Shown: in pieces, positions 4,982 to 64,000 of the stretch
Layout of the letters: each line of letters begins with the position of its first letter
How positions within the stretch are numbered: the first letter of the stretch is position 1
Sequence record: NC_031934.1
DNA: 64,000 bases
Origin: Escherichia phage MX01
Reading direction: 5' to 3' (one strand)
The notes under the pieces: generated by a model
The model's input: the letters and a program-made list of their open reading frames with translations, nothing else
The model's database searches: none
Told to the model about the DNA's origin: nothing
Position numbers and translations under genes: made by a program

Positions 4982-5536
4982 TCAGTTCCTGTAGAACCGG
5001 AATGGGTTTATGTGGAAGGCTAACATAGCCTTAGGGATTTTACGAGACAAAAGACTCTTAAGTTTCCAACCACAGTATACACGAAGGTAAAAGGTAATCC
5101 CACCTACTTTAAGATACGGAACTGAAGCAAAGACTCCCCATGCTTCGTCATTCCACATCCATAACCATCCATGATGAGCTTTATCAGGAGAACCGGATTC
5201 AACGTCAGGATTACCACGATAATGGAATTCTGAGCTACAATCGCGTCCAAGTTTATGGTAAGCAAAGTTATAAGCTTTATTTCGCCACAGCCAAGCTACT
5301 CTCTGGAGATAAACACCGCCAGGCATTTTCCTGATTTTAGCCCAACGTTTAATATGGCCTTTGTCACCGTCAATTGGATTATCGTATGTCATCATCCAAT
5401 CAAAGCCATAAGGCAATTTACCGGTCTTTTTATTATGAAAAGGGACTACAAAAGGTGCAAGGATAACAGCCAGAACCATAGAGATAAAATCTAGAGGGAC
5501 CAACAGTACCCAACTCAAATATTTTAAAAGTTTCAT
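4982..5536 (-). CDS. hypothetical Trp-rich protein with N-terminal transmembrane segment
   Basis: 184-aa ORF; N-terminal hydrophobic stretch LSWVLLVPLDFISMVLAVILAPFVVPF; AGGAAA RBS; late promoter upstream. Confidence 0.55.
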   Translation of the reverse strand: MKLLKYLSWVLLVPLDFISMVLAVILAPFVVPFHNKKTGKLPYGFDWMMTYDNPIDGDKGHIKRWAKIRKMPGGVYLQRVAWLWRNKAYNFAYHKLGRDCSSEFHYRGNPDVESGSPDKAHHGWLWMWNDEAWGVFASVPYLKVGGITFYLRVYCGWKLKSLLSRKIPKAMLAFHINPFRFYRN

Positions 5537-5562
5537 ATTATTTCCTAAGTTAGTTTACTACA

Positions 5563-5570
5563 TATTTATA
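5563..5570 (-). promoter_or_regulatory. T4-type late promoter TATAAATA
   Basis: Plus-strand tatttata = TATAAATA on the minus strand, 26 nt upstream of ATG 5536. Confidence 0.5.
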
Positions 5571-5571
5571 C

Positions 5572-5599
5572 AAAAAAGGCCCAACCTTTCGGAAGGGCC
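5572..5599 (-). terminator. intrinsic terminator, copy 2 of 3
   Basis: aaaaaaGGCCCAACCTTTCGGAAGGGCC; ends the tRNA/stable-RNA transcription unit. Confidence 0.6.
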
Positions 5600-6264: not shown

Positions 6265-6438
6265 AAACACCTCAAATAAAATTAAGTAAAGTAAGTTTGA
6301 TTAATAGACCTTGTCTATTATGAAAGGCTCTTTGAGGGAAGAACCTTTGGTAATAGAGGGTATTAATGATAGAGTAATAATAACACATTACTCTTAAAGC
6401 ATATTACTATTTTTAGGAATAGTCTGGCCAAATTTGAT

Positions 6439-8789: not shown

Positions 8790-8797
<8 letters not shown>

Positions 8798-9551
8798 TTT
8801 TATTTCCTAATAATTTATCAATAGTGGTGTATAGTTCAGAAAGAGTGCCGTTATTTTCAACAACAACGTCACCAGGTAAAATTGGTAGACCCGCTTCAGT
8901 GATGTGCGAGTCTTGTACTTGACCGGTTTCAGCGCGAACTACATGAATAATCGTAGCACCCATCGCTCTGAGCGAATCAATTTCGTGTGTTTGACGAACA
9001 TCAGGTACGACATAGTATTTCGCATCAGAGTATATTTTATCAAAATAGTCTAAAGCGAACAACTTAACCCAATACATCTTATCAAATTGGTTAACAATAA
9101 TATCAGTCCCAAGGGTCTGCATGAGACGACGTACTGACCAATTGTTATTTTTATTTATTACTTCAAACAGTTGGTCTTTTGTTTCTTCAGACAGATACTG
9201 GACTGGGGTAAGACCATAATGATATGCGGTACGAACGTCCATTCCTGGAATAGGAAGGATATTATTCAGTTTGACAATAGCATTTTCAAAGATATCAATC
9301 ACATCATATGGTTTTAAAGGAAGGATTTCTTCACGGTCGTAACCGATACCTTCAAAACAGTTGAAATCCAGTTTAGGCATATAACTACGGTCGAATACAG
9401 GGTCATCAGAGATGTATTCATAGGCTTCAGCCAGATACTTTTTAATAGGACCTGCGAGCTGAAATTTTACCGAATCCATATTTTCGATTACATAGTTAGC
9501 AACGGTATCCTTACCGCTACGTTTGATTCCTACAATTGATATTAGTTTCAT
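8790..9551 (-). CDS. 1: dNMP kinase
   Basis: MKLISIVGIKRSGKDT P-loop start and C-terminal ...ARAMGATIIHVVR...THITEAGLPI closely match recalled T4 gp1. Confidence 0.9.
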
Positions 9552-10141
9552 TATTTTCTCATAGATGGATGCATAGACATACGAGCCACACGTTGTTCGG
9601 CATACGAATCAATTTGTGGACGACCTGTAACTATTGTACCATCTATTTCTACAGCAAACGATTTGAAGTTGAATGTTGCTGTGGCGATTATCGCTGGGTC
9701 AGAATCCTCTTTATAAGAGTACTGGATTTCCGAGAGGTCGGATGGCCAACCACCGTAGTAATGAATGCTCATTACGATTTTCTGTTTGTTGTTATCAAGG
9801 ATGTGGAGGGTGATAGCTTCAGGTTGACCTTTAGGATGCCAGGCTTCTGAATCATGTGTTACATAGTTGTTTAATGACAACATCCACTTATAAACATCAA
9901 GCCATGATTTCAATTCACGGTCCACAAGAAAGTTCACGATCAGTGGGTCGAATTCTACAGTAGAACCTGGCAGCTTAGCACGATGTATGCCCTGGGTCGA
10001 TCCTGGGACGTCTGAGACCGGAATATGGATACCTGGTAGTGTTACATCTTGTACGTTCAATTTGAATGCCTGCGTCATTCCTGCGTCACTAACCTCTAAG
10101 ATAAAGTTAGTAGTGTTAGTTTGGTTAAATAAGCCGTTCAT
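9551..10141 (-). CDS. 3: tail completion / sheath stabilizer protein gp3 (by position)
   Basis: 196 aa, between genes 1 and 2 as in T4; AGGAA RBS. Confidence 0.6.
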   Translation of the reverse strand: MNGLFNQTNTTNFILEVSDAGMTQAFKLNVQDVTLPGIHIPVSDVPGSTQGIHRAKLPGSTVEFDPLIVNFLVDRELKSWLDVYKWMLSLNNYVTHDSEAWHPKGQPEAITLHILDNNKQKIVMSIHYYGGWPSDLSEIQYSYKEDSDPAIIATATFNFKSFAVEIDGTIVTGRPQIDSYAEQRVARMSMHPSMRK

Positions 10142-10152
10142 AGGGTTCCTAT

Positions 10153-10180
10153 ATTGCTTAAGTCCCAGACAGTGTATAAT
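10153..10180 (+). promoter_or_regulatory. MotA-type middle promoter candidate, antisense to genes 2 and 4
   Basis: ATTGCTTAAG-N-AGTGTATAATGGTCCTA; the 17-nt AGTGTATAATGGTCCTA is identical to the uvsY promoter -10 region, with the same ATTGCT-N16-TATAAT spacing. Confidence 0.35.
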
Positions 10181-10223
10181 GGTCCTAGGTCTGTTCCATT
10201 CAATAACTGGCTGGGATAATAGA

Positions 10224-11060
10224 TTATGAATTCTTCCATACTTTCTGAGCTGAATAACGCTTGCCTTTAGACATGAACTGTTGGAGCGGCATCATTACGA
10301 CATTAGCCCAATCAGACGGTTTTATCTCTACTAAAGGTCCCTTAATATTTCCAGGGATATAAGCCTTAATCATCACGTCGGCGCCAGCGAATCCTTTTAC
10401 CTTACTCCAATCGATTTTTAATTTAGTCGAGTTCGTAATGGTAGGCGTACTCGCGTATTGCTTCAGCAATTCTTCCAGAAATTGCTGACGTGCTTTAGGT
10501 GGAATATAGTGTAAGTTCAGTCCGTACATTAAATTATGCTTACCTAACCCAAGATAAATTATTAAAGGATATTTGTCCCAGTATGGTAGGGTATCCTTAT
10601 GTTTAGCATCATAGATATAAGCATAAAGCTTACCAGGAGACGGTTTAGATACCTGGTGTCCACGAATTCCTTTCTTTAATGTTTCTGTAAACCATTTAGC
10701 TGATTTATTGTTTACGGCAGCGCCTTCGTTAGCAATCTTATCGCGAATACTCTTTCTAAAACTATTCACCAAAATTAATTGACGTTCGGCTTTGGTTAAT
10801 TTATTGCCAGGTTTCTTCTGAAGTTTTTCAACCTGTACAGCAGTTTTAATTCGACTCGAGTATCGAGACATCGCAGATGTAAAGCTAGAATACTTGATGC
10901 CTTTATCTTCAGCGAATTTCTTAGCCGAGACACCTTTAGCCTTGGCATTGGCATATTCAACGCCTAAAGCTATCCATTGTTGTTCTGAACGAGTAGGCTT
11001 AGAACCTTTTGTAGTTTCAGTAGCCTCGTTTATGTAAGAAAATATACTCATCCTTTCCAT
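10224..11060 (-). CDS. 2: gp2 DNA end protector protein
   Basis: 278 aa; position between 4 and 3; overlaps gene 4 by 13 nt. Confidence 0.75.
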
Positions 11061-11497
11061 CCTAATTTTTTCAGTGAGTTTTCGGTAATCAATCTGAAAT
11101 TAATTCCCATTTTATCTGCTGTAGCTTTAGCAGCTTTCCATTTATCTTTATTTACACTCCATGTATAATGTTCGTTGATATATCTCTTTTTAGCAGCTGT
11201 AGTCATTTTAGCAGGTGCCGCTGGAGGATGTGTTTCTTTAAAAGGTTTGACTTCGAAAAAGAATTGTTGTCCATTATCGAACTTCACCCAGAAGTCCATA
11301 AAATACCGACGTTTCTTTCCATCAGCGTTACTAAAATATGGAATCACCACCTCTTCCGAGTTCCACTGGACAACATTAGGATGGTTATCAAGCCAACGCA
11401 TAAGCCATGCTTCCCAAGAGGAACGATATTGGATTTTCTTCCAATCACCTTTATATTTTTGTAAGTTTGTAGGTTTAAATTTCCCTGAGTAGGCCAT
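11048..11497 (-). CDS. 4: gp4 head completion protein
   Basis: MAYSGKF...YRSSWE...[22 protein letters not shown]...FFFEVKP matches recalled T4 gp4. Confidence 0.9.
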
Positions 11498-11507
11498 AGT
11501 GCCTCCT

Positions 11508-11542: not shown

Positions 11543-12145
11543 ATGCTCTTCTCATTTTTCGACCCTATCAATTATGAATCAAAAACAGTCAAGCCGGATT
11601 CAGGCTCATTAACCAACGCCGATGTACTGAGCGTGCCGATGACTGATATATTTAGAAATTATAAAGAATATTTTGATAAAGTGGCTAAAAATTATACACT
11701 AAAGACTTATTATATCAATGGGGCCCCTCGTCCAGAAGAATTGGCTAATCAACTTTATGGCAACGTCCAATTATATTGGGTTTTATTGATGTGTAATAAT
11801 GTATACGACCCTTATTACGACTGGATTACAGGTCAAGAAGTTGCATATCAAGCTGCAATCCAAAGATATTCTACTGCAGGCGGTAATCAAGTTCTTTATC
11901 ATGTTAATGAAAAGGGTGAGAAATTCTGGAATCTTGTTAATACTCCAGAAAACCCATATACTTGGTATGATAAAGGCGATACCGAAAAACGTTATCCTCA
12001 ATATGAAGGCCCTTTGGCTGCGGTGGATATTTACGAGGATGCCATTCGTAAAAATGAATATAAGCGTGAAATAAAGATTATAGACCCTAATGACATAGAG
12101 TCCTTTGTTTCTGCCCTTATTCGCGAAATGGAGAAAGCCCTCTAA
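11543..12145 (+). CDS. 53: gp53 baseplate wedge subunit
   Basis: 200 aa, immediately upstream of gene 5 as in T4. Confidence 0.8.
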   Translation: MLFSFFDPINYESKTVKPDSGSLTNADVLSVPMTDIFRNYKEYFDKVAKNYTLKTYYINGAPRPEELANQLYGNVQLYWVLLMCNNVYDPYYDWITGQEVAYQAAIQRYSTAGGNQVLYHVNEKGEKFWNLVNTPENPYTWYDKGDTEKRYPQYEGPLAAVDIYEDAIRKNEYKREIKIIDPNDIESFVSALIREMEKAL

Positions 12146-33521: not shown

Positions 33522-35504
33522 ATGGCTTTATTATCACCGGGCATTGAGCTCAAAGAAACGTCCGTACAGAGTACTGTCGTTCGTAACGCAACGGGTCGTG
33601 CAGCGCTGGTTGGTAAATTCCAGTGGGGCCCTGCTTTCCAGGTAACTCAGATTACTAATGAAGTTGAACTGGTCGACTTATTTGGAGGTCCTAATAACGA
33701 AGTTGCCGATTACTTCATGTCGGGTATGAACTTCCTCCAGTATGGTAACGACCTTCGTACTGTTCGTGTTGTTAACCGTGAATTCGCTAAAAACGCATCT
33801 CCGGTAGCAGGTAACGTCCAAACCACTATTACTACTGCAGGTTCTAACTATGCGGTAGGCGATAAAATTAATATCAAATATAACCAGACTGTTGTTGAAT
33901 CTGAAGGTCGTGTAACTTCGGTTGATACCGACGGTAAAATTATGTCGGTGTTTATTCCTACCGGCAAGATTATTTCTTATGCTCGTTCTGTTAACCAATA
34001 TCCAGACCTTGGCGCTGCGTGGACTGCTGAAGTAACTTCTGCCTCTTCAGGTGTTTCTGGTACTATTACTGTCGGTAAAATCGTAACCGATTCCGGTATT
34101 CTGTTGACTGAAGCAGAGAACAGTGAAGAAGCTATTACTTCCCTAGAATTCCAAGCATCTCTTAAACAGTTTGGTATGCCTGGTGTAGTTGCTCTTTATC
34201 CTGGCGAAATTGGTAGTACTCTGGAAGTTGAAATTGTTTCTAAAGCGGCTTATGATGCAGGTTCTACTAAAATGTTGGATATTTATCCAAATGGCGGTAC
34301 TCGTGCTTCTGTAGCTAAAGCGGTATTCAACTACGGACCTCAGACCGATAACCAGTACGCTATTATTGTTCGTCGTGACGGTGCAATCGTAGAATCCGTC
34401 GTACTTTCTACCAAAGAAGGCGAAAAAGACGTTTACGGTAATAACATCTATCTGGATGATTATTTCGCTAAAGGTACTTCGAACTATATCTTCGCTACCT
34501 CGCTGAACTGGCCAGCCGGTTTTAGTGGTATCATTAATCTTATGGGTGGTGTATCTGCTAACGACCAGGTTACTGCAGGTGATTTGATGCAGGGTTGGGA
34601 TTTGTTCGCCGACCGTGAAGCACTCCATATTAACCTTTTGATTGCTGGTGCTGTTGCCGGTGAAGGTGATGAAGTTGCTTCTACCGTCCAGAAACACGTT
34701 GTTAGTATTGCTGATGAACGTCAGGATTGCTTAGCATTTATTTCTCCTCCTAAAGGACTGTTGGTTAACGTTCCATTGACTCGTGCAGTAGATAATCTTA
34801 TCGACTGGCGTACCGGTGCAGGTACTTTCGATGCCAACAACATGAACATTAGCACCACTTATGCTGCTATTGATGGTAACTATAAATATCAGTATGACAA
34901 ATATAATGACGTAAACCGTTGGGTGCCTCTGGCCGCTGATATGGCTGGTTTGTGTGCGCGTACAGATGATGTTTCTCAGCCTTGGATGTCTCCGGCCGGT
35001 TATAACCGTGGTCAGATTCTTAACGTTCTGAAATTGGCAATTGAACCACGTCAAGCTCAACGTGACCGCATGTACCAAGAAGCTATTAACCCGGTTGTCG
35101 GTTTTGCTGGTGGTGATGGATTCGTATTGTTTGGTGATAAGACTGCAACTAAAGTTCCATCTCCGATGGACCACATTAACGTTCGCCGTCTGTTCAACAT
35201 GCTTAAGAAAAATATCGGTGATGCCTCTAAATATAAGCTGTTTGAATTGAACGACAACTTCACTCGTTCAAGCTTCCGTATGGAAGTTTCTCAGTATTTA
35301 GATGGTATTAAGGCACTTGGTGGGATTTATGAAGGACGTGTGGTTTGTGATACTACGGTGAACACCCCTGCGGTTATCGACCGTAATGAGTTTATTGCTA
35401 ATATCTATGTTAAACCTTCTCGTTCTATTAACTACATCACGTTGAACTTCGTCGCAACGAGCACTGGTGCTGATTTTGATGAATTGATTGGACCTTTAGT
35501 ATAA
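33522..35504 (+). CDS. 18: gp18 tail sheath protein
   Basis: 660 aa; position and size as T4 gp18. Confidence 0.95.
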   Translation: MALLSPGIELKETSVQSTVVRNATGRAALVGKFQWGPAFQVTQITNEVELVDLFGGPNNEVADYFMSGMNFLQYGNDLRTVRVVNREFAKNASPVAGNVQTTITTAGSNYAVGDKINIKYNQTVVESEGRVTSVDTDGKIMSVFIPTGKIISYARSVNQYPDLGAAWTAEVTSASSGVSGTITVGKIVTDSGILLTEAENSEEAITSLEFQASLKQFGMPGVVALYPGEIGSTLEVEIVSKAAYDAGSTKMLDIYPNGGTRASVAKAVFNYGPQTDNQYAIIVRRDGAIVESVVLSTKEGEKDVYGNNIYLDDYFAKGTSNYIFATSLNWPAGFSGIINLMGGVSANDQVTAGDLMQGWDLFADREALHINLLIAGAVAGEGDEVASTVQKHVVSIADERQDCLAFISPPKGLLVNVPLTRAVDNLIDWRTGAGTFDANNMNISTTYAAIDGNYKYQYDKYNDVNRWVPLAADMAGLCARTDDVSQPWMSPAGYNRGQILNVLKLAIEPRQAQRDRMYQEAINPVVGFAGGDGFVLFGDKTATKVPSPMDHINVRRLFNMLKKNIGDASKYKLFELNDNFTRSSFRMEVSQYLDGIKALGGIYEGRVVCDTTVNTPAVIDRNEFIANIYVKPSRSINYITLNFVATSTGADFDELIGPLV

Positions 35505-35629
35505 TCTATTATCCCAGGCTGTAATATAAAGAACCTAAAACCATTATACCATGTGTTTGGTTACAGCGTACATCACGTAGAATTGCGCCTGGGATTGATT
35601 ATTCTTTAGGAATATGATTTATCAACTGT

Positions 35630-35637: not shown

Positions 35638-35689
35638 AATTAATCAGAACGTTCCTGGTGTGTCCAGGAACTGACTTATGAGGCATCCC

Positions 35690-36181
35690 ATGGAGTTGAC
35701 AGATATCACTCGTGCATTTGAGTCAGGTGACTTTGCACGCCCTAACCTTTTCGAAGTGGAAATTCCATTTCTTGGTAAAAACTTTAGCTTTAAATGTAAA
35801 GCAGCACCTATGCCGGCAGGCATTGTAGAAAAAGTACCGGTTGGCTACATGAACCGTAAAATTAACGTAGCTGGTGACCGTACGTTTGATGATTGGACCA
35901 TTACCATTTATAACGATGATGCACATGACACTCGTCAAGCAATTGTTGATTGGCAGAATCTCTGTCATGGTATGACCAATGAAATCACCGGTGCAGCACC
36001 TGCAGAATATAAGAAACAAGCAGTAGTTCGCCAGTTCCATCGTGACGGCAAGACTGTGACCAAAGAAGTTACAATTTACGGCTTATGGCCTACTAACGTT
36101 GGTGAAGTCCAGATGGATTGGGACAGCAACAACGAGGTAGAAACTTTCGAATCTACGTTCGCTATCGATTGGTGGGAATGA
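35690..36181 (+). CDS. 19: gp19 tail tube protein
   Basis: From ATG 35690 (GAGG RBS): ...DITRAFESGDFARPNLFEVEI... matches recalled T4 gp19; the track start 35678 adds 4 residues. Confidence 0.9.
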   Translation: MELTDITRAFESGDFARPNLFEVEIPFLGKNFSFKCKAAPMPAGIVEKVPVGYMNRKINVAGDRTFDDWTITIYNDDAHDTRQAIVDWQNLCHGMTNEITGAAPAEYKKQAVVRQFHRDGKTVTKEVTIYGLWPTNVGEVQMDWDSNNEVETFESTFAIDWWE

Positions 36182-44299: not shown

Positions 44300-44385
44300 A
44301 AATCACCATAATAAATATAATTAAATAGAAGAGCTAGTAGTCTTCTGTCACCAAGCCAAATGGTTTAACGGAAGGACCTAGACCC

Positions 44386-44413
44386 ATTATAACACACCTA
44401 AATTTAAAGCATA
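44386..44413 (-). promoter_or_regulatory. MotA-type middle promoter candidate for rnlB
   Basis: Minus-strand reading ATGCTTTA-N13-TATAAT. Confidence 0.4.
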
Positions 44414-44623
44414 TTACTTTGAACTAGAACGCGCTTTGCGCCGAACCTTGTTGTTCAATCTTTTACGATAAACAACCTTTTCTTTCGCTTTAAATTTGGC
44501 CTTGGCTTGTTCTACATCAACCCATGCTTTGGCCATATCCTTAGCGGTCCCACCCATTTTTTTAGCAATTTCTATAAAATTCAACCCAGATTCGTGTAAA
44601 AAATGTACTTTAACCTTATCCAT
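44414..44623 (-). CDS. hypothetical small basic protein
   Basis: 69-aa ORF with Lys/Arg-rich C-terminus; sigma70-like promoter upstream. Confidence 0.5.
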   Translation of the reverse strand: MDKVKVHFLHESGLNFIEIAKKMGGTAKDMAKAWVDVEQAKAKFKAKEKVVYRKRLNNKVRRKARSSSK

Positions 44624-48821: not shown

Positions 48822-48852
48822 CGCATGTTTCCTGTGTAATAACCATAGGACC

Positions 48853-48880
48853 ATTATACACTATTCATTTGAACAGCAAT
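48853..48880 (-). promoter_or_regulatory. MotA-type middle promoter candidate for uvsY
   Basis: Minus-strand reading ATTGCTGTTCAAATGAATAGTGTATAATGGTCCTA; T4 uvsY is a classic middle-promoter gene. Confidence 0.45.
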
Positions 48881-49269
48881 TAACCACTCTGTGAGAGCTG
48901 GATTCTAATTTGCTCTAATGTATCTGGGTCATCAACAATACTAAACTGAACGGTCACGATAATCGAGTTATCATCGTACACAGGTGTCACACCTACAGCC
49001 AAGGCAGAAATTCTGGGTTCGAAGTTCCGCACAGCGGAAACTATATTACGCTTAATGGTGTCTGTGATTAATGGAGTAATATTCTCAAACAATTGGTTGC
49101 TGATGTCACAACCGAATTCAGGCATAAAAGGGCGTGAACCTTTGCGAGTAGTAATAATGCCTAACAAACTATTTTTTACTGCACGAGCACCTGTAGCTTT
49201 AGCAACGTCTCTATCCCAAGACGTTCTCATCTCAGGGTCTAAATCCGAATACATTTTATTGATATTCAT
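48880..49269 (-). CDS. 25: gp25 baseplate wedge subunit
   Basis: ...DLDPEM...NSLLGIITTRKGSRPFMPEFGCD...VRNFEPRI matches recalled T4 gp25. Confidence 0.9.
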   Translation of the reverse strand: MNINKMYSDLDPEMRTSWDRDVAKATGARAVKNSLLGIITTRKGSRPFMPEFGCDISNQLFENITPLITDTIKRNIVSAVRNFEPRISALAVGVTPVYDDNSIIVTVQFSIVDDPDTLEQIRIQLSQSG

Positions 49270-62991: not shown

Positions 62992-64000
62992 TTATAGTCC
63001 AGTTTGAGACCAATCACCAAATACATCTTCAAATGTATCAGCTTCTGTTTTATCGAAACGCCAACCTTTAATGATTGGAAGGAAAATACCTACAGTATCG
63101 GTACGTCCTTTAGAATGAACCCAACCATTACATTCACAGTCAGCAATACGTCCAATCAACTTACCTTCACGAGCTTGTTTCATAAGAAGTTCACGGTCTA
63201 AATCAGGACGGTCTTCCAATGGAATCAATACTTTTTTACCTGATTTATCTTTCTTATGGGTGGTATCTTTAAAGCCTGAACCACAGTCGCTTGTAATTCG
63301 ACGACAACGTGATACCAACTCGACACCACCTAGCTTGTTAGGGTCCTTCGAGTGTTCATAATAACCCACCACTTCTAAAGCAATATCGATTACTTCTTTG
63401 AACTTGATAAGATTCTTAGAACGACGGTTTTCCCAGTAGGAGTCCATGTTCTTAAGGATAATGCCTTCCAGACCCTGGTCGACATATTTCTTATAAACGA
63501 CTTTAGCTTCTTCAAGATTATTAACCCACCGGTTTTCGATAGCTTCAACACGCGTTGTACCATGCAATACGACATTATGAGCAACCATAAGTTCTAAGGC
63601 TGTAAAGCGTACATCATACTTATCGCCTTTAATTTTACCTTCGGAATATACGACATCCAATGGGACATAATCCCATGCCTGTAATACCATACCAGCGGCT
63701 TCAGTAGCCGAAATAGTTCCTTGAAGAGCTTTGTTAGCCAAGCCATTTGACGTAGAACGATTGGCGACAGTTTGGAATTCCTTAGCCTTACTTAATTCAG
63801 GAAGTTCCTCGTCAAACATACTAAACAAATCATTAGATGCTTTAGGTTCTACCTTAGGAGTATGGTAAACTAATTCGCCATCAATCATAACGCCATTAGG
63901 ATGGCGTTGTCGAGCTTCTTCGGTCATGGCCATTAATTCAGCCGCCAAAAGATTAAGCCCTTGATATTCGTTACCACCACGAGTAAGGAATGTCACACCA
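62992..64000 (-). CDS. 30: DNA ligase, C-terminal part (5' end beyond window)
   Basis: ...RGGNEYQGLNLLAAELMAMTEEARQ...GVMIDGELVYH...DQGLEGIILKN...CECNGW...TFEDVFGDW matches recalled T4 DNA ligase C-terminal half. Confidence 0.9.
   Translation of the reverse strand, partial: GVTFLTRGGNEYQGLNLLAAELMAMTEEARQRHPNGVMIDGELVYHTPKVEPKASNDLFSMFDEELPELSKAKEFQTVANRSTSNGLANKALQGTISATEAAGMVLQAWDYVPLDVVYSEGKIKGDKYDVRFTALELMVAHNVVLHGTTRVEAIENRWVNNLEEAKVVYKKYVDQGLEGIILKNMDSYWENRRSKNLIKFKEVIDIALEVVGYYEHSKDPNKLGGVELVSRCRRITSDCGSGFKDTTHKKDKSGKKVLIPLEDRPDLDRELLMKQAREGKLIGRIADCECNGWVHSKGRTDTVGIFLPIIKGWRFDKTEADTFEDVFGDWSQTGL

Follow-up and report, generated by a model that had tools for sequence, protein, structure and literature searches.

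Middle transcription in phage T4 is among the best-studied phage regulatory systems. The MotA box of T4 middle promoters has the consensus (a/t)(a/t)(a/t)TGCTT(t/c)a and is centred near -30 (PMC2988021), and the list of these promoters has been treated as nearly complete (PMC6024815). PuvsY is a mapped MotA-dependent promoter (PMC2988021) and the primer promoter of the replication origin oriF, and the primer RNA of a further origin, oriG, runs in the 'opposite direction of adjacent gene 34'. T4-like phages also carry promoter–stem-loop cassettes, termed PeSL and PmSL (Arbiol 2010; Comeau, Arbiol and Krisch 2014, PMC4122927), and the Mot-box version, PmSL, has been described in Vibrio phage nt-1 (PMC4122927). 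Here we analyse a stretch of 64,000 nucleotides (nt) from Escherichia phage MX01 (NC_031934.1; hereafter referred to as the window) and, within it, a short element between late genes 3 and 2. We consider it probable that the element is a genuine MotA/AsiA-dependent (sigma-appropriation) middle promoter, directed against the genes that flank it and long kept at the gene 3/gene 2 junction. An earlier note on this DNA had drawn attention to the site as a duplicate of the uvsY promoter.

The antisense promoter motif at the gene 3/gene 2 junction

The motif lies in an 82-nt spacer (10142-10223) that separates genes 3 and 2, two late genes of the minus strand. Because it stands on the plus strand and genes 2 and 4 on the minus strand, it points antisense into both of these genes, an arrangement that the earlier note had described and that the open reading frame (ORF) calls and the annotation of Escherichia phage WG01 confirm. 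Genes were assigned from the ORF calls together with the annotations of WG01 and QL01. The region from 9000 to 11500 is 98.4% identical to WG01 (Dhakavirus, Tevenvirinae, JS98-like), and the window is that of a JS98/WG01-like Dhakavirus. The element and its neighbouring genes, the latter from ORF calls and annotated relatives, are laid out as follows.

10152-10161, plus strand: MotA box TATTGCTTAA (consensus WWWTGCTTtA; includes ATTGCT), 13 nt before the -10 hexamer
10175-10180, plus strand: -10 hexamer TATAAT, inside the 17-mer (10171-10187) in common with the uvsY promoter
10181-10187, plus strand: stretch GGTCCTA following the -10, outside the general middle-promoter consensus
10164-10215, no strand: inverted repeat with arms CCCAGACAGT (10164-10173) and ACTGGCTGGG (10206-10215), which surround the -10 and the predicted start
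10215-10226, plus strand: far end of the element, GATAATAGA and then TTA, which is the gene 2 stop codon in reverse complement
8790-9551, minus strand: gene 1
9551-10141, minus strand: gene 3
10224-11060, minus strand: gene 2
11048-11497, minus strand: gene 4
from 11543, plus strand: gene 53

The box at 10152-10161 matches the MotA consensus and, counted from the 10-mer, stands 13 bp from TATAAT, within the 12 ± 1 bp of the class; under the same definition, the spacings of 58 mapped T4 promoters include 12 bp (29 cases), 13 bp (17) and 11 bp (9). The predicted start, A10187, is 7 nt past the -10, as are the mapped starts of T4 PuvsY and P34i. A sigma70 consensus scan of the plus strand from 10140 to 10190 returned no promoter, and so no -35 element at 16-18 bp. 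These features support the assignment of the motif to the MotA (middle) type, which the earlier note had proposed. As for other candidates at the site, scanning found neither an ordinary sigma70 promoter nor an intrinsic terminator, and no minus-strand late promoter (TATAAATA) for gene 3 was seen in the window spacer, read by eye. The reverse complement of the T4 MotA box reads TATAAAGC, which we take to be incidental.

To score such motifs, we used a two-block position-weight model (MotA box, spacer and extended -10) trained on 58 experimentally mapped T4 middle-promoter starts (Hinton 2010, PMC2988021), extracted from the T4 genome. In the window, the gene 3/2 site scores 19.3 bits and ranks fifth, the uvsY site scores 16.8 bits, and the best match, at 23.5 bits, is the site before rnlB; the third MotA-type candidate named in the earlier note is real. 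In T4, scanned on both strands over all 168,903 bp, mapped promoters make up 12 of the 14 top matches and PuvsY ranks third. The first rank belongs to the antisense site at the gene 3/2 junction (plus strand, -10 at 75988) and the second to a plus-strand site at 11885, between srd and modA; both of these oppose the local genes, and both are missing from the list of 58 mapped middle promoters, which has no entry from P1 (75393) to PrnlB (109763). When single loci of 3-5.5 kb were scanned, the antisense 3/2 site was the best match in T4 and in six of seven relatives, and the second best in HX01; the same scans recovered the orthologue of the mapped P1 promoter, which served as a positive control.

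The 17-mer AGTGTATAATGGTCCTA has two exact copies in the window, at 10171-10187 (plus strand) and 48846-48862 (minus strand), and no more when two mismatches are allowed. Its chance expectation is 0.01, and two matches occurred in none of 100 shuffles. ATTGCT is found at 10153-10158 (plus strand) and 48875-48880 (minus strand), with a gap of 16 nt to TATAAT and of 12 nt to the 17-mer at both sites. The exact recurrence on the plus strand and the equal 16-nt spacing of the ATTGCT box were therefore reported correctly; the minus-strand coordinates given for the repeat, 48853-48869, were wrong by 7 nt. The claim that the likeness to the uvsY promoter exceeds the general consensus also stands: positions after the -10 hold ~0.1 bit each in the 58 mapped T4 promoters, which places GGTCCTA outside that consensus.

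Conservation of the site and the family of its copies

A genus-level sample was drawn from tblastn matches in a phage collection, and the alignment was anchored on the -10. The 11 representatives are three Dhakaviruses, Gaprivervirus RZ, Pectobacterium phage PM2, Kanagawavirus PEi20, Winklervirus Vettismorki, Karamvirus Ent31, Tequatrovirus T4, Mosigvirus HX01 and Acinetobacter Lazarusvirus AB-Navy97. The motif is present at the same junction and in the same orientation in all of them, that is, in T4 and at least eight other genera. TATAAT is invariant (11/11), as is the GG that follows it at this junction (11/11), and the distance from GCTT to TATAAT is fixed in nine representatives and 1 nt off in the other two. 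The 13-nt spacer and the flanks mostly differ among the representatives; the T4 spacer, on the plus strand antisense to genes 3 and 2, reads TAATGCTTTA-taactgttggtgg-TATAAT-gggtctaag. The box lies at varying distances from the gene 3 ATG, ~45 nt further away in AB-Navy97 and ~18 nt further in Vettismorki. Because only the distance from box to -10 is fixed, the position of the box follows that of the -10, not that of the gene 3 ribosome-binding site, which fits a promoter. Judged from this alignment, the putative antisense promoter of the gene 3/2 junction is ancient and positionally conserved.

The motA gene lies outside the 64-kb window. MotA homologues that are 50% identical to T4 MotA are found in IME281 and in KIT01, whose identity to the window here is 97.9%, and homologues also occur in Edwardsiella PEi26 and in Enterobacter, Gaprivervirus-type and Acinetobacter phages, close relatives of the sampled phages that bear the site. 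RB49- and RB43-type phages are without MotA (Nolan et al. 2006). In place of the promoter motif, phages of these two types and a Slopekvirus carry antisense-oriented ORFs of unassigned function between genes 2 and 3, at the following locus positions.

329-1273, antisense: ORF of Krischvirus KpF2
435-1220, antisense: ORF of Pseudotevenvirus Olmo
1057-1311, antisense: ORF of Slopekvirus W115

A Pfam search with the antisense ORFs of these three phages gave nothing reaching the Pfam cut-off. The KpF2 junction holds TTGACC-17-TATAAT, of the sigma70 type, where the Tevenvirinae hold the Mot-type promoter. A 216-amino-acid gene annotated as a homing endonuclease is inserted at the junction in sense orientation, its borders being exactly the gene 2 stop codon on one side and, on the other, the TAATCTATTATC end of the element. 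This insertion, scored as presence or absence, is seen in QL01 (locus positions 1725-2375), C6, LQ5, E33, VR7 and VR25, which belong to Dhakavirus and Gaprivervirus; a Pfam search with the QL01 protein gave no match at E <= 0.01. In Proteus phage PM2 (locus positions 1289-1494), a very A+T-rich unit of ~75 bp, by visual estimate, occurs twice in tandem within the gene 2/3 spacer; each copy has AAAAGTATAAT or AAAAGTATAGT on the antisense strand.

The site is one of four family copies in the window: gene 3/2 (antisense), uvsY (sense), rnlB (sense) and gene 18/19 (antisense). The hallmark of the family is the unusual GG(T/G)YCTA after the -10. The other three copies, with the genes around the second antisense member, are listed below.

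48846-48881, minus strand: orthologue of the uvsY promoter, with MotA-like box AATTGCTGTT at 48872-48881, -10 at 48853-48858 and the 17-mer at 48846-48862
44377-44414, minus strand: candidate rnlB promoter, sense, ATATGCTTTA-N13-TATAATGGGTCTAGG, with -10 TATAAT at 44386-44391
35505-35571, minus strand: second antisense member, GTACGCTGTA-N13-TATAATGGTTTTAGG ... GGGATAATAGA, between late genes 18 and 19
33522-35504, plus strand: gene 18
35678-36181, plus strand: gene 19

Gene 25 lies just before the uvsY site and the uvsY start codon ~30 nt downstream of it, and because of this position we assign the site as the orthologue of T4 PuvsY. The gene 18/19 copy adjoins the gene 18 stop codon and ends in GGGATAATAGA-TTA like the 3/2 copy, TTA being the stop codon of the upstream late gene in reverse complement; its inverted-repeat arms, GCTGTAA/TTACAGC and CCCAGGC/GCCTGGG, lie around the -10. 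The string GATAATAGA occurs only twice in the window, each time ending an antisense element beside a late-gene stop codon, and it is kept in T4, RZ, PEi20 and PectoPM2. BLAST with the gene 18/19 sequence matched Dhakavirus only (49 records). Gaprivervirus has an antisense Mot-type promoter at the equivalent 19/18 junction, and T4 has a plain stem-loop after gene 18. Further strong Mot-type matches are found on the minus strand of the window at 63363, 6382, 2607 and 9638; the site at 6382 resembles T4 PtRNAE and P31 (ATATGCTTTA-N12-TATTAT), and that at 9638, which falls within gene 3, in its 3′ part, matches P1, mapped in T4 as the gene 1 promoter.

A search of T4 for TATAATGGTTCTAAG-like strings found two mapped promoters, PnrdC.7 and PuvsY, together with the gene 3/2 and 11885 sites, which further have TCTAAGTCC(N)TCCA downstream in common; the 3/2 site and PuvsY/oriF have GTGGTATAATG..TCTAAGTCC in common, and PnrdC.7 carries TATAATGGTTCTAAG itself. 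P34i/oriG (AAGTGTATAATGGTCCCA) equals the window 17-mer at 16 of 17 positions and is close to the family. PnrdC.7, PuvsY and P34i are experimentally mapped T4 promoters of these sequence types. The 11885 site (NC_000866, 11860-11910, plus strand) reads AAATGCTTTA-N12-TATAATGAATCTAAGTCCTTCCATTATAGATTA, is antisense to the early genes srd and modA, and ends at the modA stop codon; it stands back to back with an early-type srd promoter, GTTTAC ... TATAGT (read by eye).

A scan of IMG/VR with the pattern GCTT-N14-16-TATAATGGTYCTA showed that Gaprivervirus has copies at five places, up to five per genome (3/2 and 18/19, both antisense, uvsY, rnlB and one unplaced), and that Dhakaviruses also carry a copy at the nrdC.7 orthologue. 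One Acinetobacter phage genome (IMGVR_UViG_2974608788) has four near-identical cassettes, judged over ~80 nt each, and a second has two, in a lineage-specific version. The Acinetobacter cassette reads TGCTTTAyAAAATTTTGATGkTATAATGGTTCTACCGGTTCACCGCTCTAATTATATCT..., and the cassettes of AB-Navy97 are at locus positions 5390-5594 and 1397-1488.

For six genomes, we compared the gene 3/2 site with the site that follows gene 25, where the uvsY promoter is located, at 31 flanking positions that leave out TATAAT. The two sites of the same genome agree at a mean of 17.2/31 positions, and those of different genomes at 13.6/31; the means for orthologues are 15.4/31 (3/2 with 3/2) and 13.2/31 (uvsY with uvsY). 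Within genomes, the identities are 16 in the window, 18 in T4, 18 in RZ, 9 in PEi20, 13 in Vettismorki and 29 in AB-Navy97, a total that none of 265 derangements of the genome labels matched. The two RZ sites have TATAATGGTTCTAGACC in common, and the two AB-Navy97 sites ~80 nt. This near-identity within genomes points to ongoing sequence exchange or shared constraint. The exact repeat appears as one case of concerted evolution among family copies, whether through exchange or through a constraint shared within a lineage: if the copies of one genome keep each other alike, the 17-nt identity of the 3/2 and uvsY sites follows. The Acinetobacter cassettes are a clear case of the same process. A single duplication is disfavoured, because near-identity of the two copies within a genome arises independently in T4, Gaprivervirus and Acinetobacter phages. 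We therefore do not retain the description of the site as duplicated, in the sense of a local and recent event, since the site is ancient and occupies the same position in T4 and other genera with diverged spacers; nor is it a one-off copy of PuvsY, being a member of a multi-copy family.

Proposed activity and alternative explanations

On sequence grounds, the site is most likely active and makes a non-coding anti-late RNA; we infer its activity, its MotA dependence and its biological role. At middle times, MotA would bind TATTGCTTAA (10152-10161), and RNA polymerase with AsiA-remodelled sigma70 would use TATAAT (10175-10180); a discriminator that starts with GG should favour a stable open complex through contacts with sigma70 region 1.2. 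Transcription would start near A10187 on the plus strand, meet the 3′ end of gene 2 head-on, cross genes 2 and 4 in antisense, and possibly continue into the plus-strand genes 53 and 5. Through anti-late RNA, transcriptional interference or both, genes 2 and 4 would be silenced, or minus-strand read-through blocked, before late transcription. The gene 18/19 copy would act likewise on gene 18, and the T4 11885 site on modA. The gene 2 product caps DNA ends (T4 annotation), whereas recombination-dependent replication needs free ends, which may be a reason to silence gene 2 ahead of late times. From the predicted start as far as gene 53, no plus-strand ORF is conserved in seven phages, and none of at least 40 amino acids occurs in Ent31, so that the product would be non-coding. 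We also considered a discrete antisense RNA with a conserved terminator and rejected it: the window has only a weak candidate (11116-11133, plus strand), and T4 has none at the equivalent place. The earlier note had suggested anti-late RNA or a recombination relic; the former is a reasonable functional guess, and the latter, as the trace of a recent local event, is unsupported.

Several observations count against an active promoter under selection. The score of 19.3 bits is within reach of shuffled windows, whose maxima average 16.5 and reach 20.0 bits; the score alone being borderline, conservation in other phages carries the argument. The absence of the T4 site from the 58 mapped promoters could mean that it was tested and silent; stranded RNA sequencing of T4 wild type and motA-amber has been published (Patterson-West et al. 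2018, PMC6024815). The Klebsiella phages Roth34 and PWKp18, whose genes 2 and 3 overlap, are without the site, and Roth34-like Klebsiella phages carry MotA homologues (KSKp); the site is thus dispensable, as it is absent from two MotA-encoding Klebsiella lineages. Exchange with a functional PuvsY copy could keep a silent 3/2 copy without selection. Finally, the arms of the Dhakavirus hairpin lie around the -10, and the conservation of the block could partly reflect sense-strand RNA structure.

Other explanations of the element were considered. It is unlikely, in our judgement, that a mobile promoter cassette (PeSL/PmSL-like, or left by a homing-endonuclease or antisense-ORF insertion) survives here as a non-functional remnant that resembles PuvsY through exchange only. 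The junction is indeed an insertion hot spot: in QL01, C6, VR7 and VR25 the homing-endonuclease gene parts the element from gene 2, and antisense ORFs stand there in Krischvirus, Pseudotevenvirus and Slopekvirus. Moreover, the copies of one genome are homogenised, two lineages have lost the site, and the T4 copy is not on the mapped list. Such a history is hard to reconcile, without selection for a promoter, with TATAAT, GG and a spaced GCTT that stay invariant across genera while the spacers are saturated. The stretch in common in most genomes is just ~17-20 nt, short for efficient exchange, and the T4 copy is the best consensus match of its genome, which one would not expect of a relic in decay. 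The same invariant elements and the top score in T4 weaken a further explanation, which we regard as very unlikely: that the promoter-like sequence is incidental to an element of the late mRNA, in which the hairpin after gene 2 serves as a 3′ stabiliser or attenuator and is combined with the gene 3 translation initiation region. A hairpin does follow directly on the gene 2 stop codon; in the window its minimum free energy is -22.2 kcal/mol on the sense strand (z = -3.1) and -23.7 kcal/mol on the antisense strand (z = -2.3), and fold energies are significant on both strands across the representatives (z about -2.3 to -3.3). The arms surround the -10 and the start in Dhakavirus, Kanagawavirus, Pectobacterium PM2 and Gaprivervirus, and their letters vary from phage to phage with complementarity kept, as read off the sequences of PEi20 (CCCGGCCAGT/ACTGGCCGGG), PectoPM2 (CCCAGTTT/AAACTGGG) and RZ (TCAGTGTTAT/ATAACACTGA). 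A role in the late mRNA is favoured by the presence of this stable hairpin, its arms kept complementary, in most representatives, by the conservation of TAATCTATTATC after the stop codon and its recurrence after gene 18, and by the plain stem-loop of T4 after gene 18, where Dhakavirus has a promoter-containing one; and because an RNA from 10187 would, in the Dhakavirus arrangement, hold the 3′ arm only, any role of the hairpin at the RNA level must there fall to the late mRNA. However, the most conserved residues are in the loop, where they form no sense-strand pairs and read TATAATGG on the opposite strand. In the sense-strand alignment, conservation is highest around the stop codon and at ACCATTATA and AAGC, which are TATAATGGT and GCTT, respectively, in reverse complement; these columns belong to the promoter elements, not to the stems. 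T4 and HX01 keep the promoter motif although their stem is wholly downstream of the -10 and the start, the same motif stands in sense orientation at mapped promoters, no U-run follows the hairpin, and an Rfam search of 9800-10600 on both strands (E <= 1) gave no match. Counting G-U pairs as a guide to the strand that folds gave mixed results, JS98 folding better antisense and RZ and T4 better sense.

An origin function would be a sub-case of an active promoter: the site could be, like oriF and oriG, the promoter of an R-loop replication origin or of a recombination hotspot, with an annealed transcript that primes the leading strand clockwise toward genes 53 and 5. We hold this to be quite unlikely. 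The extended -10 and discriminator are common to the site and to both proven origin promoters (oriF and oriG), oriG is likewise antisense inside a late gene, and the 3/2 site is 3.4 kb from the annotated oriE, with other copies 4.9 kb from oriA and ~5.7 kb from rI.-1 (marked near oriC); these distances of 3-6 kb are, however, a post hoc match. A review describes oriF and oriG as a middle promoter with ~50 bp of A+T-rich DNA; here the middle-mode primer promoter is found at the level of the motif, and the A+T and G content past the start does not differ from that of ordinary middle promoters. Over +1 to +60, A+T amounts to 65% in the window, 68% in T4, 68 ± 5% in the 58 middle promoters, 70% at oriF and 62% at oriG, a measure that does not discriminate, as the known origins are no outliers; an A+T-rich or G-poor unwinding element was accordingly dropped as an origin signature. 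Ordinary sense promoters, PrnlB and PnrdC.7, belong to the family as well, and the annotation of oriE has an early promoter that primes on the minus strand. According to the review, no middle-mode promoter is near oriE. The five closest T4 family members start at ~11.9, 53.3, 76.0, 115.4 and 153.0 kb, two of them being the oriF and oriG promoters, and oriA, oriC and oriE, together with oriF and oriG, are the five origins reported active early in infection; a rough estimate puts the chance of three non-trivial origin proximities at ~2e-3, the comparison being post hoc. It would be a long shot to see in the GG-discriminator Mot-promoter family the missing sequence feature of T4-type origins, with the 3/2 promoter (10152-10187) contributing to initiation in the oriE region as a MotA-dependent R-loop promoter. 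To our knowledge, plasmid screens for T4 origins yielded only oriF and oriG.

Relation to described promoters and cassettes

We found no report, in the papers searched, of an antisense middle promoter at gene 3/2 or srd/modA, although an older mention may exist. Middle promoters as a class are known, and oriG provides a precedent for one that runs antisense in late DNA; with the same caveat, the promoter described here is apparently unreported. If the 3/2 and srd/modA sites fire, they would provide a concrete molecular source of antisense ('anti-late') RNA, silencing or insulating specific genes at middle times. The homogenisation within genomes shows that promoter sequences of T4-like phages evolve in concert, which matters for promoter prediction and module shuffling, and the origin function, if true, would bear on what defines T4 origins.

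Classical hybridisation studies of T4 in the 1970s reportedly detected anti-late RNA, which is complementary to late messages, is synthesised ahead of late transcription and is subject to delayed-early control. We know of no promoter ever assigned to this RNA. A MotA-dependent antisense promoter would yield RNA of this kind, and we infer the link to the 3/2 site on that basis.

Like the T4 middle promoters PuvsY, PnrdC.7 and P34i, the site combines a WWWTGCTTtA box 12 ± 1 bp from a sigma70 -10 with the lack of a -35 element. Its GG(T/G)YCTA matches the mapped PnrdC.7 and P34i, and PuvsY more loosely (GAATCTA). Unlike the mapped T4 middle promoters, it faces against both flanking genes with no ORF after it, and it is known here from its sequence. 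The closest counterpart in orientation is P34i of T4 ori(34)/oriG, likewise a middle promoter antisense in late-gene DNA; P34i lies inside a coding sequence, whereas the 3/2 site is in an intergenic hairpin element adjoining a stop codon. With the PeSL and PmSL cassettes the element has in common a short repeated unit of promoter and stem-loop, present in several near-identical copies per genome and associated with insertions and deletions; the window holds four copies, two of them with flanking inverted repeats. In PeSLs, however, the stem-loop is upstream of a promoter that faces an ORF with its ribosome-binding site, whereas the arms of the 3/2 element surround the -10 and its promoter faces the 3′ end of gene 2. 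PeSLs are mostly found in hyperplastic (highly variable) regions, whereas the 3/2 site is embedded in the conserved structural-gene core, and two of the window copies face late genes backwards.

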